Shown here: positions 47,318 to 64,000 of the stretch, in pieces | How positions within the stretch are numbered: position 1 is the stretch's first letter | How the letters are laid out: the number at the start of each line of letters is the position of its first letter | Assembly: GCA_027491115.1 (NCBI GenBank) | Contig: JAIXWV010000020.1 | Coordinates: forward strand, 229,975 to 293,974 | Reading direction: 5' to 3' | Source of the DNA: Pseudomonadota bacterium | GTDB lineage: Bacteria > Bdellovibrionota > UBA1018 > CAIMNF01 | Length of the DNA stretch: 64,000 nucleotides | Program-made: the position numbers and the translations under genes | The notes under the pieces: generated by a model | What the model was told of the DNA's origin: nothing | Seen by the model: only the letters and a program-made list of their open reading frames with translations | Database searches by the model: none

Positions 47318-48721
47318 TCAGAACTGGAAGTAAATAAATTGTTCACCAGAAAAATGCGCTCCGAATAGGAACACAATCAAAATCAAAAAATAAAGTCCCC
47401 AACGCAATAATCCTGGAAGAGATCTCACCCTCTTCCAGAAGGGTTTCTTTTCGTCCCACCATTCGAAGAAATACATCGCAACTAGTAGAACCACGAACTC
47501 GTAAACCACGTCCCGTCTCAGAAGGTCAAATCCCATTAGGAACGGACGGAAAAAGCCCTTGAACATATCGGCTACACACTCCATGGTTTCTGAGCGGAAG
47601 AAGATCCAGGTGATCATCATCGCCAGGAAGACATAAACTCTTCCTAGCCACTTAGGCCAATTCTCACTCCGATACTTCGTTGGCACGAGGCCCTCGAGGA
47701 TAACATAGCCACCTTGAGTGGCCCCCCATAGAATAAATTGCCAACTCGGCCCGTGCCAGAATCCACTCAAAACGAAAGTAATCATGAGATTGAGCCGAGT
47801 CCTGAAAGCACCATGCTTACTTCCCCCCAGTGGGATATAGACATAGTCCCTAAACCATGAGGACAGAGAAATATGCCACCTCTTCCAAAACTCAGTCATC
47901 GAGGTTGCAAAAAAGGGCTTATCAAAATTCACCATGACCTCAATCCCGAGAATCTTTCCTGACCCTCGAGCGATATCGGAATATCCACTGAAGTCACCAT
48001 AACAACGTAGGGCCAGAGCGCTACACGCCAGAAAAATGACCAAACCCCCGAAGCGAGAAGGGGCTTCAAAGACACCATTAATGAGGAGCGCAACCCCATC
48101 AGAGAGAATGCACTTCTTAAATAGGCCCTGGGCGATCAGATAAAGTCCGGAGACCACCCGCTCATAGTCGAACTCGTTCTTCCGCCAAAGCTGAGGGATC
48201 ATATTTGCAGGCCGCTCGATCGGCCCTGCAACCAACTGTGGGAAGTACATGACGTAAACGGAGTAGACCAAAAGATTCTTTTCAGCAGTCCATTTTCCTC
48301 GATAAACATCGATGACATAAGATAAAGACTGAAAAGTGTGGAACGAGAGGCCAATAGGAAGAATGATTTCTAGTGCTTGGATAGAATAGTTCCAGTGGAG
48401 CGACTTAGCGAGTGCATTGATATTTTCGATCAAAAAATTTGAGTACTTGAAGAAAAACAGAATAGAAAGGTTCGACAGTACACTTAGGGCCAAATACCAT
48501 TTTTTCTTTTCTGTTGTGCCTGCGGCCTGAATCATTCGTCCCGCAAAATAGTCGATAAGAATGATCGCATAGAGAATCAGAAGATACTTTGGCATGAAAA
48601 AGCCGTAGAAGATCGAGCTCGAAACTAAGAGGAGCCAAAGGCGATTGCGCTGCCCGAGCATGAAGTAGGCCGCACAGACGAGAGGCATGAAAATCAGAAA
48701 TTCAAATGAATTGAATAGCAT
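47318..48721 (-). CDS. MBOAT-family membrane-bound O-acyltransferase (AlgI/DltB/PatA-like)
   Basis: MLFNSFEFLIFMPL... N-terminus, multi-TM, conserved His in ...FWHGPSW...; 467 aa. Confidence 0.8.
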   Translation of the reverse strand: MLFNSFEFLIFMPLVCAAYFMLGQRNRLWLLLVSSSIFYGFFMPKYLLILYAIILIDYFAGRMIQAAGTTEKKKWYLALSVLSNLSILFFFKYSNFLIENINALAKSLHWNYSIQALEIILPIGLSFHTFQSLSYVIDVYRGKWTAEKNLLVYSVYVMYFPQLVAGPIERPANMIPQLWRKNEFDYERVVSGLYLIAQGLFKKCILSDGVALLINGVFEAPSRFGGLVIFLACSALALRCYGDFSGYSDIARGSGKILGIEVMVNFDKPFFATSMTEFWKRWHISLSSWFRDYVYIPLGGSKHGAFRTRLNLMITFVLSGFWHGPSWQFILWGATQGGYVILEGLVPTKYRSENWPKWLGRVYVFLAMMITWIFFRSETMECVADMFKGFFRPFLMGFDLLRRDVVYEFVVLLVAMYFFEWWDEKKPFWKRVRSLPGLLRWGLYFLILIVFLFGAHFSGEQFIYFQF

Positions 48722-48739: not shown

Positions 48740-51709
48740 TCACACGCGAGTCTCCCGATCCGACTCGAAATCGTTTCCTGCATTCAACATTTCAAAATAC
48801 TTTCCTCGGGTCGACATCAGGAAATCATGATCTCCTTCCTCGATTACGTGCCCCCCCTCCACAACCAGAATACGATCGACATTCCTCACAGTGGAGAGAC
48901 GATGGGCGATGATAATCGCCGTACTCCCATGAAACACTTCCTTGAGGTTCCTCGCCACAATCCCCTCTGAGTCTGCGTCGAGAGAGGAGGTCGCCTCATC
49001 AAGAATGATCACGCGGTTTCTACGGTAGAGTGCCCGAGCGAGGATCAACCTCTGCTTCTGGCCTCCTGAGAGGCCCAATCCCCCCTCCCCCAGTCGATAT
49101 TCGTACTGGTTCGGAAGCTCATGGATGAACTCATCGCAGTTCGCTAGGCCAGCAGCCCACCGGATCCGGTCCATGTCGGGGGTATCGTCTCCATAAGCGA
49201 TATTGTCGCTAATCGTACCCGAGAACACCTTGGAGTCCTGGTTCACATATGCGACTTGACTACGAACTGTAGACAGATTGAGGGAGTTGATGTTGACCCC
49301 GTCGAGTTCAATTGCACCCTTTTGAACCCTATAGAATCCTGCGATGAGGTTCGCGATGGTCGACTTCCCTGATCCGCTACTGCCCACGATCGCTACGACC
49401 TCACCTGGCCGTACCCTGAAGTCCATGTCACGGAGAACTGGGGGGCCCTCCGGGCGGTACTGAAACGAGACACACTTGAAACAGATTTCGCCGCGTAATG
49501 AAATACGGATTCCCGACCCGACATCGTCCTGAGACTGTTCAGACGGTGACAACAGGATCTGTCCTACTCTTTCGAGTGAAAGTTTCACATTCTCCCAGTC
49601 CAATACCATCGAGCTCAAGCTTGAAACTGGACTAGAAACCATCTTCAAATAAAGGTTAATCGAGATCAGCTCGCCCGGCGTGAGCCGCCCATCGAGCACT
49701 CCGCGGGCAGCCAGATACAATCCCACAACCGATCCCGTACCAGAAATCAACGAAGTCACTAAACCGAAGTGATTCATCCTCATTTGAAGCCGATAACCTC
49801 GAGCTCCGAGGGAAACGAGCAATCCCTCCCAACGATCGAGAATCTCGCGCGTTACGGAATTAGCTTTGATGGTCTGGATCGAAGACACCATTTCCGCAAG
49901 GAAGCTATCTAGCTTTACCTCATCCCTGAATAACAGTTTCGATTCCTCGACATATCCTTTTTTAAAAATCAGATTGCCGAACAAAAGACTTACAAAAATG
50001 GCTGCTGGTATAGCGAGGTACTCTGCTCCAAAGGTAGAGAGCATCACGCTCCCCGCCACGACCATGAGGACATCCACTAACAGGCTAATGGCGCCTGTCG
50101 AAATGAAGCGTCGAATTCCGCTCATTTCAGACATCCGAGCAACCACCTCCCCGATTCGGTCTCCAGTAAAAAGATTGGGATGAGCCGCAAGGTACCGATG
50201 ATAAAAAACAGAACTCAGATGGAAGTTTGACTGATTAGTGAATTCATTGATCACAAACTTCTGAGCTGTCCTCGAGACAATTGAAAAAAGTCCTAGAGCA
50301 AAAATCAATCCGACCACTCCCCAGACGAGTCCGGGTTCCTTCAGGGGCAGAATGTCGTCAAACAGGTACTGCATCACTTTTGGAAGAATGGTCTCAATCC
50401 CGACTACAAGTCCGAGTAGCATCAGAAAGGTCAGAAAAAACGACCGATAAGGACTCAGCAACTCCCAGATGATTCTCATGACTCGAAATTGCTTGCGCTC
50501 CGTCGATTCACCCTCAGGAACCCCCTCAGCCCGGGATCTAACCTCGATCAGGGTCCTGTTCCAGATCTTTCCGATCTCATCGAGAGAAGCCCTTCGGAGT
50601 CCCGACATTCCATCATAAAGAATCCACTCACTCGCTTTACATTCGAGCACCACCACAACTCGCTTGTTCACTAGAATACAAAATGGACAGCGATTCTGGG
50701 GCCCCGCTCTTTCTGCTTTCCAAATTTTTACATATAAGCCCTGTGACTCAAGGACCTCAGCCAAAACTAAGGGGGTCCTTGCACGCTTGAGCGACAACCC
50801 CTTGGCTAGTGCTTCGGAATCAACAACCACTCCCGCCAGAGATCCATAAACACGGAGCGCATCGACGGTAGCCTCAGTGAGCGTCTTGGCCTGACGGGAA
50901 CGCTGATCGATCTGCGACCACCGCTCATCTTCCATCGACTCGCCAACCATCTCGATCACTTCCGATCCCACCACGGGGACCGCCCTAATTGCACGCTTCA
51001 GGCAGGAGTTTGAATCAAGAACCATCATCAATTCAGCGAAATCATCCTTAGGAAGCGGCATGGAATTGATCACTGCCGCGGTAAGGGCTTCGCAAGAAAA
51101 CCGATCTAGGACGAACCAGGAGCCCGACCCGAGAAACTGGGGAGTAGCATACTCAGAATCGGAGGCGTCCGGATGAAGAAGAACCTCTCCTTCATCTACC
51201 CAATAAAGAGCCCCCTGATCGTTTCTACTTAGCACTTCACCTTTTTGAAGCGACTGCCCCTTACCGTTTGTTTCGCCGAAAAAACGCACCAAACGACCCG
51301 CAGGAATTCCGCTGGAGCGGAACAAGGCATCGAGATTCTCTAAAGCGGAACAACTGAATACGGTCTTGAGATACCAACTCCCCTCATTGTTTTTTCGGAA
51401 AGACGTTTCAATCAGGTCGACTGAAACACTTAGGAACCATACAGGGAAAGGGGCTATGTAATCTTGTGCATGCGTTTGATTGAGGATCCACTCCCGAAGA
51501 CCATAGGCCCATGGAGAACTCAGCCCGGATACGGAAAAAAGTATATGCTTAACCGATTCTCCCTTTCGAAAGATCAGCTCTCCCTCTTTGTAGGAAACTA
51601 TCCTGCTCGAGATCAAGCAATCTGTTTCAAGACTGGGAAACAACTCCAGCAAACGCTTGAACTGGGAGGAACGATGGATCACCTGGGAAACATTCATGCC
51701 CGGAGTCAT
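48740..51709 (-). CDS. NHLM-type ABC exporter with N-terminal cNMP-binding-like domains and a degenerate C39-like domain
   Basis: 989 aa. N-terminal cNMP-binding-like segments (e.g. YKEGELIFRKGESVKHILFSVSGL), a C39-like region lacking the catalytic Cys context, a 6-TM ABC exporter domain, Walker A GSSGSGKST, signature LSGGQKQR, Walker B ILDEATS. Confidence 0.75.
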   Translation of the reverse strand: MTPGMNVSQVIHRSSQFKRLLELFPSLETDCLISSRIVSYKEGELIFRKGESVKHILFSVSGLSSPWAYGLREWILNQTHAQDYIAPFPVWFLSVSVDLIETSFRKNNEGSWYLKTVFSCSALENLDALFRSSGIPAGRLVRFFGETNGKGQSLQKGEVLSRNDQGALYWVDEGEVLLHPDASDSEYATPQFLGSGSWFVLDRFSCEALTAAVINSMPLPKDDFAELMMVLDSNSCLKRAIRAVPVVGSEVIEMVGESMEDERWSQIDQRSRQAKTLTEATVDALRVYGSLAGVVVDSEALAKGLSLKRARTPLVLAEVLESQGLYVKIWKAERAGPQNRCPFCILVNKRVVVVLECKASEWILYDGMSGLRRASLDEIGKIWNRTLIEVRSRAEGVPEGESTERKQFRVMRIIWELLSPYRSFFLTFLMLLGLVVGIETILPKVMQYLFDDILPLKEPGLVWGVVGLIFALGLFSIVSRTAQKFVINEFTNQSNFHLSSVFYHRYLAAHPNLFTGDRIGEVVARMSEMSGIRRFISTGAISLLVDVLMVVAGSVMLSTFGAEYLAIPAAIFVSLLFGNLIFKKGYVEESKLLFRDEVKLDSFLAEMVSSIQTIKANSVTREILDRWEGLLVSLGARGYRLQMRMNHFGLVTSLISGTGSVVGLYLAARGVLDGRLTPGELISINLYLKMVSSPVSSLSSMVLDWENVKLSLERVGQILLSPSEQSQDDVGSGIRISLRGEICFKCVSFQYRPEGPPVLRDMDFRVRPGEVVAIVGSSGSGKSTIANLIAGFYRVQKGAIELDGVNINSLNLSTVRSQVAYVNQDSKVFSGTISDNIAYGDDTPDMDRIRWAAGLANCDEFIHELPNQYEYRLGEGGLGLSGGQKQRLILARALYRRNRVIILDEATSSLDADSEGIVARNLKEVFHGSTAIIIAHRLSTVRNVDRILVVEGGHVIEEGDHDFLMSTRGKYFEMLNAGNDFESDRETRV

Positions 51710-52367: not shown

Positions 52368-54899
52368 TTGAGTAATGAACACACAAAGGCGTTACTGACT
52401 CTTGCAAGCGATCTCACATTCTTCAACTTCAACGAAGTGGAGATTCATGAAACTCTAGAACTGTTTCGACAGATGAGTGAGAATCTTCAGCCGCGAACCG
52501 GCGAACGAGCCGTGATCATATCGCTCGAATCGGGCGCTTACCGGATGACGCTCGGCCCCCCCCGACCCGAACCTGGGTTCGACGGGGAGCTGATTTTCCT
52601 TACCGAAGAAACTTGGTCTTCCCGAGTAGGCAAGGAGAAGACTGCACCCTTCCTGGATTTCCTCGAGCATGAGATTCCCAGCGAAGCTCACCTCAGCGGT
52701 GAACAAACCACAACTGACCCAGACGAGGAGATTCGGCTTTTCCACAAAAACTCAAATGCACCAGAAGGAAAACCCGTATTTATCCCTCAACACGACGAGA
52801 TGGACTGCGGAGCCGCCTGTCTTTCGATGATCGCGCATTATTACGGGAAAAAGATATCTGTCCCTGACTATCGCTCAAGAGTCCATGTTACCCGCGAAGG
52901 GGCCTCCATGCTCGCCCTCAAACGCGCGGCCGAACAAACCGGTTTCGACGCAATCGGAATCTACTCTGGATTAAACTCGAATCTACTTCAGGTTCGCACT
53001 CCGTTCATCGCCCTCATGGACTATCATTTTGTCGTGGTCTATACGGTGACGGAGAAAGAATTCCTAGTTGGGGATCCCGCAGTTGGAATTAGATCAATCC
53101 CACTGGAAGAAATAAGAAAGTCGTGGTCGAAGTTCCTGCTCCTATTGAAGCCAAACTCCACTTTCAAAGACCAGAAAGAGAGCTCACCTACATTTAGAAA
53201 GTATCGACGTGTTTTTCAAGGAGAAGGAGGCCGCCTTTTCGATATCGCGACCGCATCGATCTTGAGCTTATCTGTAGGGGTGATCACACCACTCTTCATG
53301 CAAACCGTTTTCGATCGTGTATTCAGCGAAAAAAGCCAGGATGGACTCACGGCCTTGGTCATTGCCTCAGTGGCCGCCACAGTCGCATCGACTTTCTTGG
53401 GCTGGGTGAGCACCTACACATTCTCCCATTTATCCATTCGTCTAGATTCCAAGTTCTCCGCTCTGTTCATGCGACACACCCTATCTCTACCCTCTGGATT
53501 TTTCGCTGTGAGGCGGGTCGGAGACATTACCACACGTGTTCAAGAGTTGGGCGTGTTGAGGAGTTTTTTTACTGGGGATCTCCTCGCGTTGCTGATGTCA
53601 CTCCTGTCTGCGGTCATGTATTCAGTTCTTGCGGCGCTTTACGACTGGAGAATCCCTCTTCTGGTATTCTGTCTTCTTTTCTTTCAGGTACTTTTCGTTC
53701 TTAAAATTTCAAAGAAAATCTCTGAAATTTACCAGCAGTCCTTTAAGTCTTCGACGAAGAGTCAAAGCCTTCTTTATGAACAGATCCATTCGATCGAGAC
53801 GCTTAAAATCCTCAATCAGACAACTCCGGCCCGCTGGCGATGGGAAGAAACTCTTCTAGACTCCCTCAGGCTTCAAAGAAAACTCGGTCTATATACTGCA
53901 ATTTCAGCAGGCAGCTCGGAATTCTTTAGAGAAGCCTCCCTCAATATTTGTATCTTTCTATGCCTTTATCTTTACCTACTGAACGATCTGACTCTCGGTC
54001 AGATTGTGGCGGTCACTGCCCTGATCGGGAACATCACACCGGCGATTGTTCATCTGGTAGAGTCACTTACTACCATCAGCCAAATCAAGGTCTCTCTTGC
54101 AAGGGTGGATGACGTGATCACTTCGTCTCCAGAGAAGACCGAGGGTCGCATGGATTTCGATCCTTACGGAAAGATCGAGTTCAGAGGAGTATCATTCCAG
54201 TACGGAAATGAGTTATCGCCATATGCCCTCCGGAATGTGGATCTAACCATCAACTCCGGGCAGTCGGTGGCTTTTGTGGGAACAAGCGGTTCTGGCAAAA
54301 CAACTCTTGCCCAGATGATCGGGCTACTCCATCGCCCCACACAAGGCAGTATCCTGATTGATGGTGTCGACATCACCACTTTGGACCTGGAGAGACTCAG
54401 ACAGCATGTCGGAATGGTCCTTCAGGAAAACAACCTCTTCAGCGCGAGCGTACTAGACAACATCACCCTAGGGGACCCAAACCCATCCCGACAAAAGGCG
54501 ATCGAGGCAGCCAAGATCGCTCAGATCGACGAACTGATTCAGACTCTGCCTGGGACATATGATTATCTGATCGACCCAGTTCACTCCGGCCTTTCGATGG
54601 GCCAAAAGCAAAGAATTGGAATTGCGCGAGCAGCCTATAGGAATCAAGCCATCCTTATCCTAGATGAGGCAACCTCTGCGCTTGATGGAATCACAGAGAA
54701 AAAAATCATTGAAGCTCTGATGCGGCACCGGAAAGGCAAGACAACAGTGGTAATCGCTCACCGGCTTTCTACTGTTTCTGGAGTGGACCAGATCTGTGTT
54801 TTTGAAAAGGGCACTCTGGCTGAAAAGGGAACCCTGAAGACTCTCACTCGAAGAAGGGGGAGATTCAGCGAACTATTCGCCAATCAACTTCAATTCTGA
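52368..54899 (+). CDS. peptidase-C39-containing ABC transporter (PCAT, double-glycine leader processing exporter)
   Basis: C39 catalytic motif QHDEMDCGAACLSMIAHYYG, 6-TM exporter domain, Walker A GTSGSGKTT, signature LSMGQKQR, Walker B ILDEATS; 843 aa. Confidence 0.85.
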   Translation: MSNEHTKALLTLASDLTFFNFNEVEIHETLELFRQMSENLQPRTGERAVIISLESGAYRMTLGPPRPEPGFDGELIFLTEETWSSRVGKEKTAPFLDFLEHEIPSEAHLSGEQTTTDPDEEIRLFHKNSNAPEGKPVFIPQHDEMDCGAACLSMIAHYYGKKISVPDYRSRVHVTREGASMLALKRAAEQTGFDAIGIYSGLNSNLLQVRTPFIALMDYHFVVVYTVTEKEFLVGDPAVGIRSIPLEEIRKSWSKFLLLLKPNSTFKDQKESSPTFRKYRRVFQGEGGRLFDIATASILSLSVGVITPLFMQTVFDRVFSEKSQDGLTALVIASVAATVASTFLGWVSTYTFSHLSIRLDSKFSALFMRHTLSLPSGFFAVRRVGDITTRVQELGVLRSFFTGDLLALLMSLLSAVMYSVLAALYDWRIPLLVFCLLFFQVLFVLKISKKISEIYQQSFKSSTKSQSLLYEQIHSIETLKILNQTTPARWRWEETLLDSLRLQRKLGLYTAISAGSSEFFREASLNICIFLCLYLYLLNDLTLGQIVAVTALIGNITPAIVHLVESLTTISQIKVSLARVDDVITSSPEKTEGRMDFDPYGKIEFRGVSFQYGNELSPYALRNVDLTINSGQSVAFVGTSGSGKTTLAQMIGLLHRPTQGSILIDGVDITTLDLERLRQHVGMVLQENNLFSASVLDNITLGDPNPSRQKAIEAAKIAQIDELIQTLPGTYDYLIDPVHSGLSMGQKQRIGIARAAYRNQAILILDEATSALDGITEKKIIEALMRHRKGKTTVVIAHRLSTVSGVDQICVFEKGTLAEKGTLKTLTRRRGRFSELFANQLQF

Positions 54900-55651
54900 T
54901 CGTCCCGATCCACCCAGGAAAGAGTCATCTCGATCCGCACTCGTCTCCGATCCTCGATACAGCTTTCAAGCAGATATCTTGCCTCCTCCTGATACTGTGC
55001 GCAGGAGAACTGCGATGCAAGCCTAGATTCGATCCTCTCAACTAAACCTGCCGTCCACTTGAAGTGATGAACTGGAACCGCTAGCTCCGCTCTCTTGACC
55101 GAAGCAGGATCTTCAAGCACCCGATGGAGCCCGGGGCCCAATCGCACGACCGGCCTTGATAGGGGAACCTTGGTGGAAGAACCCTTCAGAATGTCGGCTG
55201 TGAAAAGCGCCTGAACCGGAAACTGCGCAAAGATCGAAGTGGTCCCCAAGACCGGGTTCAAAGCTCCAAGAGGAGCGAATCGATCAATTAGAGTTCCTCC
55301 CAGATAGTCGTACGGACTAACAATCAGCTGGGAAAGAAACCCCGGGTCCAAGCTCACGAATTCGTCACTATCCACTGTCCAGACCCACTGGTCAGACTTC
55401 AAGACCGTGGACTTGTACTCGGAGATCTTGGCCACTCTTTGCAACTCGTCCACCGAACCCACACTCGACTCGATCAGGGTCACTGGATTCTGCGCGAACA
55501 AAGCCAGGTAAGGGTGCACCGAATCCTGGATTCCAAGAGGATTACTGAAAAAAAGATGAAATCTCTCAACTCCCATCTTTCGGTAAAAGCGGAACCATTG
55601 CGACAGGATGTCGATCGAGTCTGCGGTCGAAACATAGGCAACCAGATTCAT
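54890..55651 (-). CDS. GT92-like (former DUF23) nucleotide-sugar glycosyltransferase
   Basis: ILSQWFRFYRKMGVERFHLFF resembles the GT92 EWIEYH..GV.HFYIY block; DxD-type VDSDEFV. Confidence 0.45.
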   Translation of the reverse strand: MNLVAYVSTADSIDILSQWFRFYRKMGVERFHLFFSNPLGIQDSVHPYLALFAQNPVTLIESSVGSVDELQRVAKISEYKSTVLKSDQWVWTVDSDEFVSLDPGFLSQLIVSPYDYLGGTLIDRFAPLGALNPVLGTTSIFAQFPVQALFTADILKGSSTKVPLSRPVVRLGPGLHRVLEDPASVKRAELAVPVHHFKWTAGLVERIESRLASQFSCAQYQEEARYLLESCIEDRRRVRIEMTLSWVDRDDQN

Positions 55652-55669: not shown

Positions 55670-56758
55670 TCAAAACCGTACATACTGATCTCCCCTAACC
55701 AATAACCCCAACCCCATCATCGACTCGATTTCACGAGGATTGAAAAAAGCAATCTCCTCACGGTAGTATTCCGGCAAGAGGGCCTCTTTCCCGGCCAGAA
55801 CCATATCTCGGGCCTCTGGAATCACCCCCTCGGGCCGAATTCCACTCTCCGACTCCTCGTACTGGTTGATCCGATGGAGGTTGAAACCCGAGACTCGACG
55901 GCGGAACATCTCGAACCCACACATCGGGAAATGGAGAATAAGTGCGCTCATACTGTCATCAATCACCACTGAAGCATTGGTAAGATCGGGGTGGTAGTGA
56001 TGCACCGTAGAGGGAGTTTCGATATCTATGAAGTGCCTCGGCCTGAAAACACTCTTTCCATGAGCATACCCGACGAAAGGAAATCTCCGAAAGGCGCGAT
56101 ATCTCATGTACAACCATTGCTTCTCACTCAATATGAAGCGGGTCTTTTTAAAGAGTGCCACCTCTCGAAAGGCGTCTCGGTACTCAATCTGCTGGGGAAC
56201 TGCCTCAACATTAGGAACAAATACCTCTGAGACACGATCATCGAATCGACTCAGATACTCGCTCACTCCGCCACAGGTTCTATCGACCCCAAATAGCTCG
56301 TCTGAATCGAGGTGACAAAGCCAGTCTATTCCCTCCTGAGCAGCGAGTCGTGTGGCATACCCAGTATTGAGCTGCTGCCGCGTCACCACTCTTCTGGAGT
56401 AGGTCTCAGCATGATTCTGATAAAAAATAGTTTTTTGGAGCACCTGCAAGAGGCGGTCGTCATGCTGAATAATCTGCACAAAAGAAGAAAATTCTGACGC
56501 CTGTAGAAGTTCCAAAAATGCGGCGTCATAAGCTGGATCATCCAGAAAAAGATACACCTTTTCAAACCCAACTGAACGGTGGTGACTTAGAAAACTAAAA
56601 AATCCGGAATCAAGCCCTTTGGCTGTAGTCACCAGTGCGGACTTCAACCCATCCCCCAAAAAAGAAAAAGGGCGTCCTTCTTCAACAAAGAAGGACGCCC
56701 CGAAATCATTACTTACCGCCGGCTTTGACCGCACCAGGCTTAGCCCCGGCAGGAGCAA
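55670..56758 (-). CDS. GT92-like glycosyltransferase (second copy)
   Basis: SVGFEKVYLFLDDP and LDSDELFG motifs, a paralog of the preceding gene. The first-listed start is TTG; the true start is uncertain and may lie downstream. Confidence 0.45.
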   Translation of the reverse strand: MLLPGLSLVRSKPAVSNDFGASFFVEEGRPFSFLGDGLKSALVTTAKGLDSGFFSFLSHHRSVGFEKVYLFLDDPAYDAAFLELLQASEFSSFVQIIQHDDRLLQVLQKTIFYQNHAETYSRRVVTRQQLNTGYATRLAAQEGIDWLCHLDSDELFGVDRTCGGVSEYLSRFDDRVSEVFVPNVEAVPQQIEYRDAFREVALFKKTRFILSEKQWLYMRYRAFRRFPFVGYAHGKSVFRPRHFIDIETPSTVHHYHPDLTNASVVIDDSMSALILHFPMCGFEMFRRRVSGFNLHRINQYEESESGIRPEGVIPEARDMVLAGKEALLPEYYREEIAFFNPREIESMMGLGLLVRGDQYVRF

Positions 56759-57146
56759 CGCCTTGCTTCACCGCGGTGGCGGCACTTGCCTTCTGGAATG
56801 GGAACTTGGATGCTGCTCTGAAGCCAGCGCCACCCACCACCAGGTTCGCAAACCGGGCGGATGCGGTGAGCTCGTCGGTGGAGATACCACCTCCGGCGAG
56901 AACCGCCATCTGGGAATCACTCAGCTTCTTCATTCCCCATTCGGAGTCGAAATGAATCAGGTCATCGAACTCTTCAAAGGTTGAGCAAACTCTGGCGACT
57001 TTACCGAGTGACAGTGCGTCTGCTGCGTCAACGGTAGGTCCGAGTAGTTTTGCTTTGGCTTTGATAGAGGTTTCGTCATCCCTTCTAAACGACTCATAAA
57101 CAGACTTCAGAATCACCTTTGGAATACGCCCCTTGGACATCGACAT
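56709..57146 (-). CDS. candidate RiPP precursor: NHLP/Nif11-like leader ending in a double-glycine motif plus a Gly/Ala/Lys-rich core
   Basis: Strong RBS (GGTAAGGAGAAAGC-ATG) and an AT-rich upstream region. Residues 1 to about 86 form the leader, with ...MKKLSDSQMAVLAGG(G) at 72-87 matching the LSxxELxxVxGG consensus. KAKLLGPTVDAADALSLG resembles the NHLP/Nif11 helical block. The 58-59-aa core is ISTDELTASARFANLVVGGAGFRAASKFPFQKASAATAVKQGVAPAGAKPGAVKAGGK. Flanked by a C39-PCAT cassette. Confidence 0.55.
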   Translation of the reverse strand: MSMSKGRIPKVILKSVYESFRRDDETSIKAKAKLLGPTVDAADALSLGKVARVCSTFEEFDDLIHFDSEWGMKKLSDSQMAVLAGGGISTDELTASARFANLVVGGAGFRAASKFPFQKASAATAVKQGVAPAGAKPGAVKAGGK

Positions 57147-57308
57147 GCTTTCTCCTTACCAGCGGAATAAAAGTAACCGCTTTTACATGATTGTAATGTT
57201 TCCTTGTCGGATCAGGTAACAAATAATTAATATTTTTTATGTAAAAAAAGCCGTCTGATTCAAGGGGTTCCATAGAGGTGTCAAAAATGACACTCACCAA
57301 TTCGAGCC

Positions 57309-57992
57309 TCACCTCATGAAGTATTCAATAAATGGCTCGATATTGGCCTTCTGATCCGGACCCCCATTTCCATGGATAATGAGTGGCTGCGTCCCGGTGA
57401 GGACATTTTCAACTCGACCCCCGCTCATCGTATAATCCCAGCCGATAAATCCCGGCGAGAAAAGGGTATAGAATAGCTCGCACCGATGATCGAGTTTAAT
57501 CAGGCCCGGGTTCTCGAGAAACAACCGGGTGTAGAACCTCTGGTCATCCCCCCAGATGTCGACTCCTGAGAAGTTAAAACGCAATGCCGCATTGCGAAAA
57601 TACTCAATCTCAGCCATGAAGCACCCAGCATTGAGGAAACGCCAAGGTGTTTCACAGGGGGGATAGCGGTCTTCCATACCGGCGTCCGGCCAGCAACTCT
57701 GTTCGGCATTAAACACCCAAGGATGTTGAAGTTCGATAAAGCGACGCTCCACCTCCTGTAAGGGAGCTGTGACGACTACATCAAACGCGTCCATGACTAG
57801 TACATGGGTGAATTGATCGCGCATTTCCTCGATAGTTTCGAAAACTCGCTTGATCTTGAGGGCATGAGAGTACTTGGGGAACCCCTCGGGCCAAACGTTT
57901 CGAACCTCGTAACCAAACGAATTCCAGATCCTCGAGCACTCCTTGAAATAGCCACCTTCTCCGTTCCACATGGATAGCACCAGTGTTTTCAT
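57309..57992 (-). CDS. glycosyltransferase homologous to the N-terminal GT domain of lysyl hydroxylase LH3/PLOD (collagen Hyl-glycosyltransferase-like)
   Basis: Motif-by-motif resemblance to the LH3 GT domain as I recall it: DxxD MDAFDV (LH3 VDSYDV), AEQSCWPD (AESFCWPE), WRFLNAGCF (KRFLNSGGF), DDQRFYTRLFL (DDQLFYTRLYL), LDHRCELF (LDHKSRIF), PLIIHGNGG (PIVVHGNGP). Confidence 0.5.
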   Translation of the reverse strand: MKTLVLSMWNGEGGYFKECSRIWNSFGYEVRNVWPEGFPKYSHALKIKRVFETIEEMRDQFTHVLVMDAFDVVVTAPLQEVERRFIELQHPWVFNAEQSCWPDAGMEDRYPPCETPWRFLNAGCFMAEIEYFRNAALRFNFSGVDIWGDDQRFYTRLFLENPGLIKLDHRCELFYTLFSPGFIGWDYTMSGGRVENVLTGTQPLIIHGNGGPDQKANIEPFIEYFMR

Positions 57993-58639
57993 GGACTCAT
58001 AAACCTCGCGACTTCACGATAACGATTGAGATTCTCCGGTGGGATGCCGGCCCTGAAATACTTGTACACTTCTTCCACTTCGACGAAATCGAGCTCCTGG
58101 AACACCTCTACCGGACCGATCGGCAACTGGTACCAAAATCCGGCTAATTCCGTTCGATAGATCCCAGAAAGAATATCGAGCTTAAGCGAGAACTGATCTG
58201 AGGAAAGAGTATGAGCGGTGTAGTTTCTGGAGAATGCTCCCGGTGAAAACACCGGAACGCCAAGCTCGGCGGCCGCCCAATGAACTGCATACGAGACATC
58301 CTGATGCTGGATGTGCCCATACTCGCCGTGTGGAGAATGGGTATAGACCACCTTGTATCCTCCCGAGCGGATCAAGTTCAGAACCGCCTCGTACACTTCC
58401 TCTACGGGCAGTCGCTCGCGAAAGCTATCTTTCAGACTAAGGAGTTCAATCCGAGGCACACCGAGCGCCTGACCGGCGGAATGGAGCTGCGCCATTCGTG
58501 CCTGACCCCTGCCCTCATAGTTTCCGTCGGTCACACAACACAAATCTGCAGCACCGGGGTAAAGCACCGTGAACACCGAAGTAAAGAACAAGGTCTCATC
58601 ATCAGGGTGGGCAGCAACCACTAGCGCTTCACTCTTCAT
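57989..58639 (-). CDS. PIG-L/LmbE-family N-acetylglucosaminyl deacetylase
   Basis: AAHPDDETLFF zinc-binding signature at the N-terminus; 216 aa. Confidence 0.75.
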   Translation of the reverse strand: MKSEALVVAAHPDDETLFFTSVFTVLYPGAADLCCVTDGNYEGRGQARMAQLHSAGQALGVPRIELLSLKDSFRERLPVEEVYEAVLNLIRSGGYKVVYTHSPHGEYGHIQHQDVSYAVHWAAAELGVPVFSPGAFSRNYTAHTLSSDQFSLKLDILSGIYRTELAGFWYQLPIGPVEVFQELDFVEVEEVYKYFRAGIPPENLNRYREVARFMSP

Positions 58640-58752: not shown

Positions 58753-59808
58753 ATGCGAACGAAAATCCGGGTGCATTTTCACATCCCCGAGCCCGATGTG
58801 GGCGGTGCCGAGGTTCACGCACTGAACCTATGGAAAACCATCGATCGGTCGAAGTTTGAGCTTACAGTGAGCGCTCCTCCGATGAGGCCAGAGTTCCAGT
58901 GGTTCGAGGAAGAGATCAGGCGCCACGCTCCACTTCACATCTTTTCACGCTCTCCATCCGAGATCGCTCATTTCCTGAGTTCGGTTCGCCCATCCTTGAT
59001 TCAGTTCTACAACAGCATTGATTTTTGTGATGCTCTCGACACTATCGATTTCCCCTTCGCCGGGATCGAGCTCATTCACGCAAAAAAGTTCTGGGGACAG
59101 GACATTACCAAGACTCCAAAGCACCACGTCCGCATCATCATTGGAGTCAGTGATGATGCCTGTAGGTTTTACCTTGATAACCGACTGGAGCGGGACATCG
59201 AGGTCAGAACCATTTGGAATGGGATTGATACCGGGAGATTCCCGCCGAGGCGTAAGGAAGACCCGGATCGATTACGATTCCTCTCGGTCTCTCGACTCAG
59301 TATCGAGGATAAGCGACTCGACGATTTGATTTACTTCTTCAACCGACTCGGGGTTTCCACACACGAACTCCACCTGGTCGGGGAAGGCTCGGATGAGGGC
59401 GTTCTTCGTGAGTTTGCGGAGTCACTCGGGGCTGGAAACGTTCGGTTTCGTGGCTTTCTTGAGGATCCCTCAACCGCTTATTCGGAAGCAGACGTCTATA
59501 TCTCGCTGTCCGAACGCGAGGGGTATGGCCTAAGCCTGGCTGAGGCAGCCGCATGCGGACTTCCAATCCTCAGCTGGAACTGCGGAGGGGTCATGGATCT
59601 ATTTGAGGACGGCAAAAATGCTCTGATCCTTGAAAAAGACGGAGACATTCTTCCGGCGATGTCCCGGATGCTCAAGGATTCCGAGCTCAGGAGAATGCTC
59701 GGACAGAACGCTCGTGCCCTGGCTCAAGCAAAGTTTGATCTCAGAGGAATGACCCGGAGCTACGAGAAACTCTACGAGGAACTCTTGACTCCCCATTCAT
59801 TCGGTTGA
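58753..59808 (+). CDS. glycosyltransferase family 4 (GT-B)
   Basis: RBS AAGGAG; C-terminal EGYGLSLAEAAACGLPILS... GT4 signature (E-x7-E region). Confidence 0.75.
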   Translation: MRTKIRVHFHIPEPDVGGAEVHALNLWKTIDRSKFELTVSAPPMRPEFQWFEEEIRRHAPLHIFSRSPSEIAHFLSSVRPSLIQFYNSIDFCDALDTIDFPFAGIELIHAKKFWGQDITKTPKHHVRIIIGVSDDACRFYLDNRLERDIEVRTIWNGIDTGRFPPRRKEDPDRLRFLSVSRLSIEDKRLDDLIYFFNRLGVSTHELHLVGEGSDEGVLREFAESLGAGNVRFRGFLEDPSTAYSEADVYISLSEREGYGLSLAEAAACGLPILSWNCGGVMDLFEDGKNALILEKDGDILPAMSRMLKDSELRRMLGQNARALAQAKFDLRGMTRSYEKLYEELLTPHSFG

Positions 59809-59861: not shown

Positions 59862-61250
59862 ATGGGGAATCACCTCTACCGCTGGGACGAAATCCAAAAG
59901 CTAAAGGATCTAGCGATCCGGCCGGAGGTTGCCTCTCCATTCGTCGAAGGCTCGGTTCGGACTGGCACTCCGATCGTCCTACGGAACCCGGTCGGGGGTG
60001 CTCTTTTTACAGAAAGGGACACCCTCGAAGTGATCCGAGATATTTTCCTGAATCCCTTCAGGGATCTTCCGAATCCGAAAATCATCCTCGGAGACTCAGA
60101 ACTCTTCTCTGATTACAGCAACGATCCCGACGGGCTCGCCGAGAAACTGCTTCGCCTTGCGCCGTTACCCGATGAAGAGACCGTGAGCAGTTATGTGGAA
60201 CGAGTGAAGCGAGAGACTGGCTCGAGCGAACTTTTCTATTATATGAAGATCCGTTCAGCAAATCATCCCCTCCTCTGGTTCAAAGTCCGGGAGGTGCAGA
60301 AACACATCTTTAACCGAATGCCCTATCCGGCCGGAGGTGTCGAGCTGGATATTTTCTTCGGCGATTACTCCAAAACACCCACTAACATCCATCGGGACGG
60401 AGCCGGCTTCATTTATGTCGTGAGTGGATCAAAAAAATTTCATGTGTGGCCGTTCGACCGATTCAGCGGACTCGATTCGGTCAAAAACGATGCCCGATTG
60501 AGGCCCGCTTACTTTCTTGGCGAATCTGTACGCTTCGAAGATGCGGTGGCGACAGGAATCCCACTCGAGGGGAGTCGAGGCGACATCATCTTCTGGCCAG
60601 ACGACCATTGGCATATCGCGGAGGGAGACGGAAGCATTGCGATCACTTTCTGCATGAGTTTTTTCTTTAACTTCTCCATTCTCAGTGAAATCGAGCCCGC
60701 ACTCCAGTCCATCGGTGCAGGGGATCCACAATCATTAGTCCCGCGCGAGCTATCGAAATCGGGAGGATCAGGTCCGGATGTGACTCCGTTAAATAATGAG
60801 CTGGTCACAGCCCTCGATCGCTGGTGGAAGGATACCAGCGTCATTTACAGTAGGCTACGAGAAGCCTATACACTGAAACAAATCGAGAGGACGAGCGGAG
60901 CAGGTTTCAACCAGCCCTTTTTTCCAGTTAGGATCGATCGGGAAAGCCTGATTGGGGTTCGCCTGAAATGTGATCCGGAGTTCCCCTTGCATCATGTTGT
61001 CCTGGGCAAGGTCACCCATGTTGCCGCAAATGGCATAAGCAGCGCCTTCACGGACGCTTGTGAACCGCTTATTCCATTTCTTACCTGGCTCAACACAGGG
61101 GCGGAGTTCACGACCGACACAGCAACCATATTGTTCCAGGAGACGACACGGCAATCGGTCAACGAGCGCGAGCGTAGAACTCTTGAAAGCTGCCTCGAAT
61201 TCGTTCTGTCGATGAGAGCGGCATTCATTGTAAACGGAAGCGGTCCATGA
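59862..61250 (+). CDS. JmjC/cupin-like domain protein (candidate 2OG-dependent hydroxylase)
   Basis: Cupin beta-sandwich with a HxD...H arrangement (NIHRDGAGFIYVVSG...FHVWPFD ... IIFWPDDHWHIAEG); 462 aa with an extra C-terminal domain. Confidence 0.4.
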   Translation: MGNHLYRWDEIQKLKDLAIRPEVASPFVEGSVRTGTPIVLRNPVGGALFTERDTLEVIRDIFLNPFRDLPNPKIILGDSELFSDYSNDPDGLAEKLLRLAPLPDEETVSSYVERVKRETGSSELFYYMKIRSANHPLLWFKVREVQKHIFNRMPYPAGGVELDIFFGDYSKTPTNIHRDGAGFIYVVSGSKKFHVWPFDRFSGLDSVKNDARLRPAYFLGESVRFEDAVATGIPLEGSRGDIIFWPDDHWHIAEGDGSIAITFCMSFFFNFSILSEIEPALQSIGAGDPQSLVPRELSKSGGSGPDVTPLNNELVTALDRWWKDTSVIYSRLREAYTLKQIERTSGAGFNQPFFPVRIDRESLIGVRLKCDPEFPLHHVVLGKVTHVAANGISSAFTDACEPLIPFLTWLNTGAEFTTDTATILFQETTRQSVNERERRTLESCLEFVLSMRAAFIVNGSGP

Positions 61251-62341
61251 GTTCCGTCCTCGACCTTCTGCGCACCCTGGACTTGCCGAAGTCCAATCTC
61301 GCTGTTTCCATGCTCGAGCAACGCTCCATGGAGCCAGATGATGGCGGGGTACGGATTTTCTTCTATGACTCCCCAGAATGGTTGGAGCTCGAAGAAAAAG
61401 CTGTTCGCGCCTTCAACGATGAAGGGCACGTCTATCCGGAGGACATTGCGCTCTATGTCCTGCTCAGAGACCGATTCTGGCAACATCGCGTCCATCGGCC
61501 GGAGGAAGCCGACTTCGTTTTCACTCCCTTTCCTGCGACTACGGCCCGATGCATTCCTCAAGACGAGTTCAACAGGGCACTTGGACGCATGAGCCTTTTG
61601 GGTAAGATTCCACACCTGCTCATCGACACCCACGACGCCTATTCCCGCCCAGGATACGCGCAAGGGAATCCTTCGCGGGAATCGTTGGCGGAACTCAAGC
61701 AAGCTCTCTTCGGCTGGATCAGCGCGGATTTCACGCTTTTGTATCTTGACTCGACCCCGCAGGACCATCCGGATGATATCCCTGTCCTTCCGTTTTGTGG
61801 CTTCGAAACGATCCCACCTGATGCGACCGAGAGGCCCTACTCCACCGGCTTCGTCGGCACCCTGGGTCAGGAGCATTGGCCAGCAGGAAACATCCGCGGG
61901 AAAGACGCGTTTCAGAATTGGATGGATCTCAAGGATTCCTTTGGTACCGATGCTTTTATAGGCTCCAACATGGAAGCAATCCTCACTCTTTCGGGTATCA
62001 CATCCCCCCTGATTGAGCTTCCTCGACTCTCTAAGACTTGGCTTTGTCCGCGAGGATTCAGTTCTTATACCTACCGAATCTCGGAGTCGGTACTGAGCGG
62101 TGCTGTACCGTGGATCTTGGCCGACGACTACCGTCTCCCGTTTGAACAGCTCATCGATTGGAGTGGGTTCTCCATCCGGAGCCGGGAGTCCGATTTACCC
62201 CACCTGAAGGAGACTTTCGTTCAGAACCGTCTCCCTATCGAACAAAAGATCAAAAAACTCCATGATTTCCAGCATTATTTTACTCCGGAGGGGCTATTCC
62301 AGTTGATCCGGATGGAACTCAAGAGGAGGAGGAAAGAATGA
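61247..62341 (+). CDS. exostosin/GT47-like glycosyltransferase
   Basis: C-terminal exostosin hallmark: WLCPRGFSSYTYRISESVLSGAVPWILADDYRLPFEQLIDWSGFSIRSRESD (compare F.LCP.G...R..EA...GCIPVI..D...LPF...IDW..FSV). ATGA overlap with the upstream gene. Confidence 0.5.
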   Translation: MSSVLDLLRTLDLPKSNLAVSMLEQRSMEPDDGGVRIFFYDSPEWLELEEKAVRAFNDEGHVYPEDIALYVLLRDRFWQHRVHRPEEADFVFTPFPATTARCIPQDEFNRALGRMSLLGKIPHLLIDTHDAYSRPGYAQGNPSRESLAELKQALFGWISADFTLLYLDSTPQDHPDDIPVLPFCGFETIPPDATERPYSTGFVGTLGQEHWPAGNIRGKDAFQNWMDLKDSFGTDAFIGSNMEAILTLSGITSPLIELPRLSKTWLCPRGFSSYTYRISESVLSGAVPWILADDYRLPFEQLIDWSGFSIRSRESDLPHLKETFVQNRLPIEQKIKKLHDFQHYFTPEGLFQLIRMELKRRRKE

Positions 62342-63531
62342 AACACGAGCCACCTCTTTTTGGAGCCTACTTCTACCCCATTAGTAGCAAGTGCCCGGTC
62401 CGAAATTCCCGCGCTGAAACCCTCGCTCTGCCCCAGGTGCCGAATGAGTGCACTCTGGCATTGAATGCCACACCGCTGTTTCCCGGCCACGAGCAACCAC
62501 AAAAGTACTGCATTGATCGAGAGCTCACCACCACTTGGGATGATGCTGACCCCGAAACAATGAGGAAGCATGTCCAGCTCGCCAAGGAACACGGGATCGA
62601 CTTTTTCCTGTTCGATACCTACCTCGGGCTCAAGGACGGAAAGGTTTACCATGAGCTGAAGGAGTGCATTGACCTCGGAATGCTTTCTCAGCAGCTCGGT
62701 GACTTCAAGTTCGCGGTTATGAATGTACCCGCCAGTCCTCGAGTCATCCTTCCGATGCCGAAAAACCTCGAGAAACGACTCTCAGACTTTTATCGCGAAG
62801 AGCGGTTCTACGAAATCTCTGAGGCCTGCGCCGAAGTAATTGTCGACCACAATCAATCGAAATATTGGGGACATGCCAATTATCTTCATATCGACGGACG
62901 CCCGGTTCAAGCCCTGTTCATCGGCGATTTCCGCTTTGAAGATCCAGAGCTTGAACGAAAGCGAGTGCTCGATTTTCTGCTTCGATTCAAGAGCTACTCC
63001 TTTGAAAAATACGGTGTCCGTCCTTATGTCATTGCCGTCATGGTGAACAGCCTCGACTTCATCGAAGAGTGCATGGCTGCAGAGGTCGATGCGATTACCG
63101 GTTATGGATTGCTAGCCTATTTTGAGAAATACGAGTCGAGCGTCCAGAACTACCCCGACCTTGTAGAGCGACGGATCGAAGACTGGCCACTGATCCAGTC
63201 GATGATCGGAGATATCCCTTTCATTCCCCCCATCGTCCCTGGCTTTGACTCCTCTCCACGCGGAGAGAATCACACCAAGCTGGAAGAGGTGACGGGGCGC
63301 TATCCATTCACGCCCGTCGTTGCGAACTCTAATCCCGAGTCCTTCGAGAACATGATGTCTGCGGCGCGGACCTTCATCGAGAGTCCGTTCCCAAACCGTC
63401 CTCCGCTTTATTTGTTTTCCACCTGGAACGAGATCACGGAAGGAATGGCCCTTCTCCCCAAGGCTAACCGCGGAACCTTCGATTCGACCCTACTCGAGCG
63501 GGTCAAAAAATTTAAGGAAACACTCAAATGA
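62338..63531 (+). CDS. WbsX-like (GH99-like) glycosyltransferase family protein
   Basis: N-terminus ...LFGAYFYPISS resembles the FYLPQFHP start of WbsX-family proteins; 397 aa. Weak call. Confidence 0.3.
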   Translation: MKHEPPLFGAYFYPISSKCPVRNSRAETLALPQVPNECTLALNATPLFPGHEQPQKYCIDRELTTTWDDADPETMRKHVQLAKEHGIDFFLFDTYLGLKDGKVYHELKECIDLGMLSQQLGDFKFAVMNVPASPRVILPMPKNLEKRLSDFYREERFYEISEACAEVIVDHNQSKYWGHANYLHIDGRPVQALFIGDFRFEDPELERKRVLDFLLRFKSYSFEKYGVRPYVIAVMVNSLDFIEECMAAEVDAITGYGLLAYFEKYESSVQNYPDLVERRIEDWPLIQSMIGDIPFIPPIVPGFDSSPRGENHTKLEEVTGRYPFTPVVANSNPESFENMMSAARTFIESPFPNRPPLYLFSTWNEITEGMALLPKANRGTFDSTLLERVKKFKETLK

Positions 63532-64000
63532 GCTCAACTGAAAATAAGAAGCTACTCCTTACCATCGCTTGTGGAGATTACTATCAACGAATGGCGGAAA
63601 TCACCCATCCCTTCCTGAGGAGCTATGCGGAAAAGATCGGCGCGGACTTCCATTGCATCTCGGAACACCGTTCAGAGCTTCCCGCCCATTTTCAGAAGAT
63701 GTCCATCTATGAATTCCTGGAGCGCTACGATCGGATCCTCTTCATGGATACGGACATTCTGGTTCGACCTGAGGCTCCAGATCTTTTTTCTATTGTAGAT
63801 GAGCAGCACCTCGGTCTTCTGGACCAGTCCCAACACTATTCTTCGAGTCCGATCCAGTTTAGATCCGCCGTGAGCCTGTGGGGGTATGACCTTTCACCCG
63901 AACGCTATTACAACACCGGAGTGATGGTGATCTCGAAGATCCACCGCAATCTTTTCCGCATACCTGTTGACATCCGACCGGAGCAGGTCCCCTTCGACCA
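63528..64000 (+). CDS. GT8/GT34-like nucleotide-sugar glycosyltransferase, 3'-truncated by the window end
   Basis: ATGA overlap start; YAEKIGADFHCI, DxD MDTDILV and YYNTGVMVI motifs typical of GT8/GT34 (Mnn10/GMA12-like) retaining GT-A enzymes. Confidence 0.4.
   Translation, partial: MSSTENKKLLLTIACGDYYQRMAEITHPFLRSYAEKIGADFHCISEHRSELPAHFQKMSIYEFLERYDRILFMDTDILVRPEAPDLFSIVDEQHLGLLDQSQHYSSSPIQFRSAVSLWGYDLSPERYYNTGVMVISKIHRNLFRIPVDIRPEQVPFD

Follow-up and report, generated by a model that had tools for sequence, protein, structure and literature searches.

What does a homolog of the glycosyltransferase (GT) domain of human LH3/PLOD3, an enzyme that modifies collagen, do as a free-standing protein in a bacterium? 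The question is raised by a 64,000-nucleotide stretch of contig JAIXWV010000020.1 (assembly GCA_027491115.1; positions 229,975 to 293,974 of the forward strand), which we call the window. Here, a gene at 57309..57992 on the minus strand encodes a standalone PLOD/LH3-type GT-A glycosyltransferase of 227 aa. The original prediction, made from the letters alone, held that this protein O-glycosylates hydroxylysine (Hyl) or hydroxyproline (Hyp) in a neighboring ribosomal peptide. We arrived at a different answer, to which we give slightly better than even chances: the protein would be an active PLOD-type retaining glucosyltransferase that extends a peptide-linked glycan, as one step in the cytoplasmic, multi-enzyme glycosylation of a double-glycine precursor of a peptide that is made by the ribosome and modified after translation (RiPP).

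The protein is a genuine member of the PLOD/LH3 family with a GT-A fold, and the similarity is far beyond chance. Its open reading frame (ORF) begins with ATG and fills exactly 57309-57992. It matched the Pfam family PF25342 (GT_PLOD) at E=6.1e-30 and 104.6 bits (cut-off 27) over profile positions 54-230 of 246, and the only PDB sequences that phmmer retrieved were those of mimivirus R699, at E=1e-21, and chains of human LH3, at E=9e-21 to 4e-19. An AlphaFold2 model based on 55 homologs reached a predicted local distance difference test score (pLDDT) of 94.7 and a predicted template modeling score (pTM) of 0.92. When this model was compared with the PDB by Foldseek, ranks 1-15 were all LH3 or R699 (E=1e-16 to 9e-20, template modeling score 0.75-0.82), and the next fold was PBCV-1 A64R (E=3e-8, score 0.59). 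The predicted kinship with LH3 is thus borne out by the Pfam, phmmer, and Foldseek results, the last of which was far from a list of generic GT2 folds. All of the motifs named in that prediction were found and in the right order, namely, MDAFDV (residues 67-72), AEQSCWPD (96-103), RFLNAGCF (118-125), GDDQRFYTRL (148-157), LDH (167-169), and HGNG (207-210). However, the supposed poly-Asp block holds two Asp (D149 and D150) vs. five in LH3, and HGNG, taken to be the terminus, is followed by 17 more residues that form a C-terminal helix. Neither an accessory domain nor a 2-oxoglutarate (2OG) lysyl-hydroxylase domain was found in this single-domain polypeptide, which sets it apart from the architecture of LH3, L230, and R699.

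To compare active sites, residues in the phmmer alignments were brought to the published numbering by a shift of the chain index (+23 for LH3 and -3 for R699). D68, D71, and H207, the Mn2+ ligands, align with D112, D115, and H253 of LH3 and are invariant across 55 standalone homologs. In a crystal structure of R699 with uridine diphosphate (UDP) and kojibiose, nine residues touch Mn, UDP, and both glucoses, and mutants are inactive (PMC12279948). All nine are identical in the window protein, where K46, E97, W101, N121, D149, D150, Q151, H207, and N209 correspond to R699 K62, E114, W118, N138, D162, D163, Q164, H216, and N218. H207 aside, these residues also align, in the same order, with conserved LH3 positions K89, E141, W145, N165, D190, D191, Q192, and N255. 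Glucosyltransferase activity is lost in LH3 E141A, W145A, D190A/S, and D191A, N165 and Q192 are required for transfer onto the acceptor, and D190 is the residue that distinguishes active LH3 from the weak LH1 (PMC10342707). By alignment, then, the window protein is most likely an active, retaining, Mn2+-dependent UDP-hexose transferase, with UDP-glucose the favored donor. Its acceptor would most likely be an existing sugar rather than an amino-acid hydroxyl, so that it lengthens a glycan rather than starting one. In R699 and LH3, the residues conserved here hold the donor glucose and the acceptor sugar, so the enzyme most likely adds a second sugar, and the idea that this enzyme itself glycosylates Hyl or Hyp was not supported.

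Still, the window protein is not simply an LH3 domain or an R699 in miniature. With the LH3 GT domain (galactosylhydroxylysyl glucosyltransferase; PDB 6wfv and 6fxr), it shares PF25342, a template modeling score of ~0.8, 26-27% identity, the DxxD plus His Mn site, and the eight further residues listed above, but it is standalone, has a shorter glycoloop, carries S99 and F178 in place of F143 and N223, and is cytoplasmic, bacterial, and without a collagen substrate. R699 of Acanthamoeba polyphaga mimivirus (a collagen glucosyltransferase and kojibiose synthase; PDB 9dyt and 9e92), which uses a retaining mechanism without a catalytic base (PMC12279948), is the best PDB sequence match. It differs in having a C-terminal accessory domain, a cooperative homodimer, and a collagen-binding cleft; the domain is missing in the window protein.

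A candidate carrier for the glycan is encoded next to the GT, and it could be followed in a second lineage represented by three independent assemblies (L018 to L020). This precursor peptide of 145 aa (56709..57146, minus strand) consists of a ~86-aa leader and a ~59-aa core rich in Ala, Gly, and Lys. Its ORF starts 162 nt downstream of the GT gene on the same strand, with a GGAG Shine-Dalgarno sequence 9 nt upstream, and a Shine-Dalgarno sequence precedes M1 in both lineages. The leader ends in MKKLSDSQMAVLAGG, with G next after the cleavage point, and has hydrophobic residues at positions -4, -7, -12, and -15. In the leader end, M72-KKLSDSQMAVLAGG-86, these are L83, M80, L75, and M72, which are invariant or conservatively replaced in 4/4 homologs. 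Across the same four aligned homologs, the 86-aa N-terminal region is nearly invariant and the N-terminal half of the core is conserved, followed by a variable tail that ends in AGGK. Non-synonymous divergence between the two lineages (pN) rose from 0.06 in the leader to 0.12 across core residues 87-120 and 0.32 in the tail, at a saturated synonymous divergence (pS) of ~0.8; for comparison, pN was 0.17 for the GT, 0.30 for the adjoining PIG-L gene, and 0.27 for the hydroxylase described below. The precursor is a real coding gene under strong purifying selection.

Other readings of this interval were rejected. A shorter precursor beginning at M72 (74 aa) would discard the upstream 71 codons, which are the most conserved part, as well as the M1 preceded by a Shine-Dalgarno sequence in both lineages. 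Cleavage at a second double glycine (VVGG/AG, residues 105-106) does not fit the hydrophobic register. An ORF of 67-72 aa at 57094-57312, between the GT and the precursor, is spurious, as the sister lineage shows nothing but an AT-rich spacer of 119 nt at this place. The precursor stop is immediately followed by an intrinsic-terminator-like hairpin (56669..56701, minus strand; 15-bp stem, 8 GC pairs, T-run), which is likely an attenuator between the precursor and the downstream GT genes.

The original prediction had described this peptide as exported, Lys-rich, and partly collagen-like. The double-glycine precursor is real, and an exporter with a peptidase C39 domain is present in the cluster, but the likeness to collagen did not hold. 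The core contains 15 Ala, 9 Gly, 6 Lys, 7 Ser/Thr, and no Cys, and its Gly spacing (18, 1, 2, 21, 5, 4, 5, 1) shows no Gly-X-Y periodicity and no triplet repeats. Among the four homologs, K114, K119, and K145 are the sole invariant Lys residues of the core, in which P116 and P132 are also invariant.

The GT and precursor belong to a cluster that is collinear as a whole in the second lineage, at 41-80% amino acid identity. Its two best-conserved proteins are the precursor (80%) and the PLOD-type GT (75%, with saturated synonymous sites). The shared order runs from a second ATP-binding cassette (ABC) subunit through an HlyD-like adaptor, the C39 ABC exporter, GTs of 253 and 362 aa, the precursor, the PLOD-type GT, and PIG-L, and continues with GT4, a JmjC-like protein, GT47, a WbsX-like protein, GT8, a further GT4, a PIG-L of ~490 aa, a 222-aa protein, and Acetyltransf_9. 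The start of the GT gene overlaps by 4 nt the stop of the first PIG-L gene (a de-N-acetylase family member of 216 aa; 57989..58639, minus strand), an arrangement of translational coupling that is also found in L018. Downstream of the precursor on the minus strand are a GT-A glycosyltransferase (Glyco_tranf_2_4 with a weak GT92 match; maximal ORF 362 aa, 55670..56758), whose true start is probably near 56650, after the terminator (orthologs are 327-354 aa), and a 253-aa GT-A-like protein (54890..55651; Glyco_tranf_2_4 just under threshold), which is kept beside the precursor in L007 and L018. PDB sequence searches with these two GTs gave no matches. The plus strand carries a GT4 (GT-B) glycosyltransferase of 351 aa (58753..59808), the hydroxylase candidate, an exostosin-type GT47 of 364 aa (61247..62341), a WbsX-like protein of 397 aa (62338..63531), and a GT8 that is cut by the window end (63528..64000). 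Beyond that end, both L018 and L001, a contig 99% identical to the window (contigs of this identity occur in several sequencing runs), continue with GT4, a 485-aa PIG-L, the 222-aa protein, and Acetyltransf_9.

In total, the cluster holds at least nine genes for soluble GTs or GT-like proteins (one is truncated at the window end and another lies past it), two PIG-L genes, an acetyltransferase, and a candidate JmjC-type hydroxylase. The GT families are PLOD-type, GT4 (twice), GT47, GT8, GT2_4/GT92-like, sub-threshold GT2_4-like, and WbsX-like. None of the tailoring enzymes has predicted transmembrane segments, and no priming phosphoglycosyl transferase, flippase, polymerase, or polysaccharide exporter was found in the cluster core of the window and L018. 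This combination of soluble enzymes and missing membrane polysaccharide machinery favors glycosylation of a soluble peptide in the cytoplasm, before double-glycine cleavage and export.

Genes for such export are at hand. The C39 ABC exporter (843 aa; 52368..54899, plus strand) has the DCGAACL catalytic-Cys motif and comes closest to TIGR03796, the NHLP bacteriocin ABC1 model (E=7e-141), and its L018 ortholog matches PF03412. Next to it are a short HlyD/AprE-like membrane-fusion adaptor with one transmembrane segment (191 aa, and 190 aa in L018; 51706..52281, minus strand) and a second ABC exporter subunit of 989 aa with a long N-terminal extension (48740..51709, minus strand), which matches TIGR01846 (HlyB) best and also the NHLP models TIGR03796 and TIGR03797. 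After the sister cluster, at 18627-21386 of L018, we noted an M16 peptidase with a signal-like N-terminus, a 2OG-FeII_Oxy_3 gene, and a PhyH-family oxygenase. These genes have no counterpart in the window and may represent lineage-specific extra tailoring or processing.

The pairing of a PLOD-type GT with an exported double-glycine peptide is not confined to this cluster. In an uncultured Mucilaginibacter (L012, 2014-11658), a same-strand operon encodes a Cys-rich peptide with a double-glycine leader, a C39 ABC exporter, HlyD, GT2, a methyltransferase, GT_PLOD, and GT61, with gaps of 3-31 nt between genes after the peptide gene. An equivalent cluster in M. galii CCM 8711 (L013; NZ_BMDO01000011.1, 3586-20318) adds a carbamoyltransferase, APS kinase, and a weak sulfotransferase-like match, and both also hold a VKOR-C39-thioredoxin fusion and HlyD or OEP. 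In a third Bacteroidota locus (L016), a C39 ABC gene lies within 6 kb of a PLOD-type GT. The pairing arose or persisted independently, since the Mucilaginibacter GTs are only ~25% identical to the window GT and their peptides and partner enzymes are unrelated. Neither a hydroxylase nor PIG-L was found in the L012 and L013 operons. As an aside, these clusters are candidates for multiply glycosylated, possibly sulfated or carbamoylated bacteriocins in a cultured genus.

A hydroxylase was also part of the original prediction, which pointed to nearby JmjC and 2OG oxygenases and to lysyl specificity. The first of these is a 462-aa protein (59862..61250, plus strand), a candidate 2OG protein hydroxylase of JmjC/cupin-8 type with a putative H177-x-D179...H251 triad, in which H177-R-D179 and H251 are present, and K191. 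Cupin_8 matched below threshold in 3/3 members of this hydroxylase family (best E=4e-4) and JmjC_2 in one (5e-3). A PDB search with the single sequence gave no match, and one with the family profile gave only JMJD5 and FIH at non-significant E-values (0.2-1.5), aligned on the strand of the distal His. The AlphaFold model is weak (pLDDT 52), such that its fold matches serve as a hint only. Within this limit, the best 50 Foldseek matches were all JmjC hydroxylases. At their head stood NO66, MINA53, and YcfD, ribosomal oxygenases with three domains that act on His or Arg, and then came FIH, which acts on Asn. The weak model also has a three-domain layout like that of the ribosomal oxygenases, including a C-terminal beta3-alpha3 unit. 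It is therefore reasonably supported that a protein or peptide hydroxylase belongs to the cluster, and the signs that it is of JmjC type are consistent but weak. However, the nearest folds of this weak model are His, Arg, and Asn hydroxylases rather than lysyl ones, contrary to the specificity proposed.

The second oxygenase, a 2OG-FeII_Oxy_3 gene at 39682-40482, fared less well. We rejected it as a cluster member: it lies 17 kb from the GT and beyond the conserved core, and the 2OG gene near L018 is not its ortholog. Between the window and L018, no PLOD/P4H-type 2OG lysyl hydroxylase is conserved with the GT; the conserved hydroxylase candidate is JmjC-type instead.

Two further observations concern the hydroxylase family. 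The best-predicted part of the weak model, residues ~365-455, consists of three beta-strands and then three helices, and this beta3-alpha3 topology is shared by PqqD-like RiPP recognition elements and the winged-helix domain of ribosomal oxygenases. Separately, a homolog of 443 aa and 23% identity directly follows three tandem 67-aa peptides in L021 (7732-9787), with further cases in L022 and L023, so the family recurs next to small peptides. The tandem peptides have the pattern ...KRSDVKDLPAQP..DVSGG/ATIRSAEPCVRPAIDPCWKPAGLPGTISTPIKGH, where the slash marks the end of the double glycine, and cores of the type ...SGG/ATIR...KPA..., and the L021 homolog has HRG in place of HRD at the metal motif. 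The peptides look like an uncharacterized RiPP family, possibly with a 2-His iron site in the enzyme.

How common is the GT outside these settings? A standalone member of the family is nothing out of the ordinary in bacteria. When 1.84 billion representatives were scanned exhaustively with HMMER, 1929 clusters passed E≤1e-3 and 743 passed E≤1e-10; many have a length of 210-235 aa, and the family extends over bacteria, archaea, phages, and giant viruses. GTDB species genomes were scanned with a pattern, built from a 10-sequence subset because the 55-sequence alignment was too diverse for pattern design, and relatives were found in Verrucomicrobiia, Pseudomonadota, Bacteroidota (including the cultured Mucilaginibacter galii), Lentimicrobiaceae, and the archaeon Nitrosotalea. 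Homologs also occur in cyanophages, and those in giant viruses carry the UniProt label "PLOD1-3-like GT domain-containing protein." By contrast, the close lineage is rare, with 2 clusters above 50% identity among 5.8 billion proteins. A scan of genome contigs with the single GT protein as the query found no relative, and word-indexed searches returned 2-3 clusters each for the GT, precursor, and hydroxylase, a number from which deep alignments of the last two were not attainable.

Domain fusions give some indication of what the family does. GT25 is present in 3/10 of the closest multi-domain relatives, and others are fused to GT10, GT11, or methyltransferase domains. In one Pseudomonadota metagenome-assembled genome (MAG; L009, JBCCGE010000001.1, 8497-11101), a single 646-aa protein combines GT25, GT_PLOD, and 2OG-FeII_Oxy_3, with a second 2OG-FeII_Oxy_3 gene adjoining; this fusion brings together collagen-type hydroxylase, galactosyltransferase, and glucosyltransferase domains in one bacterial polypeptide. 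The PLOD-type GT domain is a general sugar-extending module that is often, but not always, coupled to a hydroxylase or GT25. Two standalone relatives were seen in virus-like surroundings. In a Nitrosotalea MAG (L010, 3951-8057), a phage major capsid gene is found two genes upstream of GT_PLOD, and GT2 and a methyltransferase come after it, an arrangement that points to an archaeal glycosylation module of viral or proviral kind. In Logan SRR29078154 (L004, 572-2766), a GT_PLOD of 30% identity follows GT2 among many very short ORFs, also a phage-like context.

We propose that, in the cytoplasm and guided by the leader, the cluster enzymes would form an assembly line for a multi-sugar O-glycan carried by the core of the 145-aa precursor. 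The glycan would be attached to Ser/Thr or to a residue hydroxylated by the JmjC-type enzyme, and at some later point in the order of steps the PLOD-type GT would add glucose to a hexose already on the peptide rather than to the side chain, in an alpha-1,2 linkage by analogy with its relatives. The finished glycopeptide would then be cut after the double glycine and exported by the C39 ABC transporter pair with the HlyD-like adaptor. The product is most likely a multi-sugar glycosylated RiPP.

Several points weigh against this proposal. Two residues of the proposed galactose-acceptor pocket of LH3, F143 and N223, have given way to S99 and F178, which means that a hexose of the known type may not be the acceptor, and the enzyme is without the accessory domain that mediates dimerization in R699 and LH3. 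Its nearest multi-domain relatives are generic multi-GT glycan builders, meaning that the family is not intrinsically peptide-specific. The precursor leader gave no match at E≤0.1 to Nif11, NHLP, or any Pfam/NCBIfam model, and a RiPP recognition element was demonstrated in none of the cluster enzymes, although no dedicated search for one was made. Moreover, all of the evidence is metagenomic sequence, and the adjoining low-GC module leaves room for a glycan-centered function of the island. This module (37950-48721) lies upstream of the peptide cluster and past a drop in GC content from ~57% to ~49% at ~38 kb. It encodes a DUF6311 protein, a 454-aa multi-transmembrane protein (GT-C-like), the 2OG-FeII_Oxy_3 oxygenase, a methyltransferase, GT2 with a 108-aa protein of three transmembrane segments (GtrB/GtrA-like), a polysaccharide deacetylase, a GMC oxidoreductase, an AlgX-like SGNH protein, and MBOAT. 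The high-GC part of the window encodes BamA, LolCE, LpxB-LpxK, AlaRS, and GlyRS, which indicates a diderm host and a chromosomal locus. At the boundary itself, a 1183-aa protein (34032-37583) has a lipoprotein-like N-terminus and RCC1-like repeats (CWG.N..GQ, read by eye).

The main alternative, which we consider unlikely, is that the GTs, deacetylases, and acetyltransferase make an oligosaccharide or glycoconjugate, either free or joined to a nucleotide, lipid, or small molecule, that has nothing to do with the peptide, and that the peptide/ABC module is a mere neighbor in a horizontally acquired island. The lower GC content from ~38 kb and the membrane and polysaccharide genes just listed fit such an island, as does the fact that many GT relatives belong to multi-GT glycan builders, lie in prophage regions, or are joined to sugar methyltransferase-like domains, and the pairing of GT4 with PIG-L resembles bacillithiol- or mycothiol-type pathways. 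However, it cannot be shown that the low-GC module has been kept together with the cluster, and the cluster core has only soluble tailoring enzymes and none of the membrane machinery sought there. The precursor also sits between GT genes of the same strand in an interleaved order that persists at 41-80% identity in the second lineage, where it and the PLOD-type GT are the two best-conserved proteins. A role for the GT as a free-sugar disaccharide synthase of kojibiose type, or as a catalytically idle relic without a part in the cluster product, seems highly improbable to us. It is true that R699 makes kojibiose from UDP-glucose and free glucose and that its sugar-contacting residues are retained in the window protein. 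Yet the low pN of the window GT at saturated synonymous sites, its overlap with PIG-L in both lineages, and the retention of all catalytic residues argue against this reading, and a lone kojibiose synthase would have no reason to be in a peptide-export operon.

The original prediction, under which a JmjC or 2OG enzyme hydroxylates core Lys (or Pro) and the glycan, including the glucose added by the GT, is O-linked to Hyl or Hyp as a counterpart of collagen Glc-Gal-Hyl, ranks in our judgment after the peptide-independent pathway and is likewise improbable. A JmjC-type hydroxylase candidate is conserved in the cluster, the core has invariant Lys and Pro residues, and BipG offers a precedent for a JmjC hydroxylase acting on a RiPP. 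Fusions of the PLOD-type GT to a 2OG oxygenase and GT25 also occur elsewhere (L009, cyanophage annotations, and the GT25-bearing relatives), from which it follows that the hydroxylase-GT link is old and not confined to animals. Against this, the core is not collagen-like, and none of the cluster genes in the window, L001, and L018 matched GT25 (PF01755), which could make the Gal-Hyl acceptor. The closest folds to the weak hydroxylase model act on His, Arg, or Asn, the 2OG-FeII_Oxy_3 genes differ between the two lineages, and the Mucilaginibacter operons use the same GT family without any hydroxylase. Finally, the seven Ser/Thr residues in the core are open to ordinary O-glycosylation. We therefore retain glycan extension on the double-glycine precursor as our preferred explanation.

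Set beside known systems, the cluster resembles several without matching any. The collagen-type Hyl pathway combines a lysyl hydroxylase, GT25/COLGALT, and galactosylhydroxylysyl glucosyltransferase on a substrate with Gly-X-Y triplets and X-Lys-Gly sites, whereas here the core shows no triplet repeats and GT25 is missing from the cluster. Glycocins (sublancin, glycocin F, and the thermophile glycocins) are likewise ribosomal peptides that are O- or S-glycosylated by dedicated GTs, and they also have a double-glycine leader and C39 ABC export. However, in the papers retrieved, a glycocin cluster depends on a single dedicated GT, such as ThgS, whose substrate is a peptide with disulfides. The glycocin GT is of SunS/GT2 type and adds one or two sugars, and the glycocin core is a Cys-stabilized helix-loop-helix. 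The window core contains no Cys, and its cluster has no SunS-type GT2 but instead the many GT and GT-like genes of other families, along with the two PIG-L, the acetyltransferase, and the candidate JmjC hydroxylase. With NHLP/Nif11-type bacteriocin systems, it shares a ~86-aa leader ending in a double glycine, a two-ABC exporter with an adaptor, and the TIGR03796/TIGR03797 matches, but the leader matches neither Nif11 nor NHLP and the adaptor is shortened to ~190 aa.

The Mucilaginibacter operons share the double-glycine leader peptide, C39 ABC, HlyD, a PF25342 GT, and further GTs. They differ in GT sequence (25-27% identical), in their Cys-rich peptides with short leaders, and in partners (GT2, GT61, methyltransferase, carbamoyltransferase, and sulfation genes, with no hydroxylase or PIG-L). 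BipG, a JmjC ornithine hydroxylase that acts on the RiPP precursor of biphenomycin, is a precedent for a JmjC-domain 2OG hydroxylase in a RiPP pathway, though that pathway is without glycosylation. No PLOD-type GT or hydroxylysine glycan in a RiPP was found in the searchable literature, which agrees with the earlier statement that Hyl O-glycosylation is undescribed for bacterial RiPPs.

As an enzyme, then, the GT is a new member of a known family, while the cluster as a system would be a glycosylated RiPP variant with unprecedented GT content. Glycosylated RiPPs are rare, and the glycocin papers that we retrieved describe O- or S-glycosylation by one dedicated GT, such that this cluster, if our reading is true, greatly extends the amount of glycan that a ribosomal peptide can bear. 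A bolder version, more doubtful to us than either of the two main rivals, is that a JmjC-hydroxylated side chain, Hyl or other, carries a large, partly de-N-acetylated or re-acylated oligosaccharide to which the PLOD-type GT adds a collagen-like alpha-1,2-glucose. If true, bacteria would have their own RiPP-based equivalent of collagen Glc-Gal-Hyl, and no other known RiPP would come close to it in degree of glycosylation. In practical terms, a compact, soluble GT of 227 aa with a conserved LH3 active site could be a tractable model for LH3 inhibitors or for kojibiose-type glycoside synthesis. The wide distribution of the "collagen" GT domain in bacteria, archaea, phages, and giant viruses, sometimes in fusions with GT25 and 2OG domains, bears on the origin of the collagen-modifying enzymes of animals, and extension of a peptide-linked glycan, if true, would be the first prokaryotic biological role for the PLOD/LH3 GT family.

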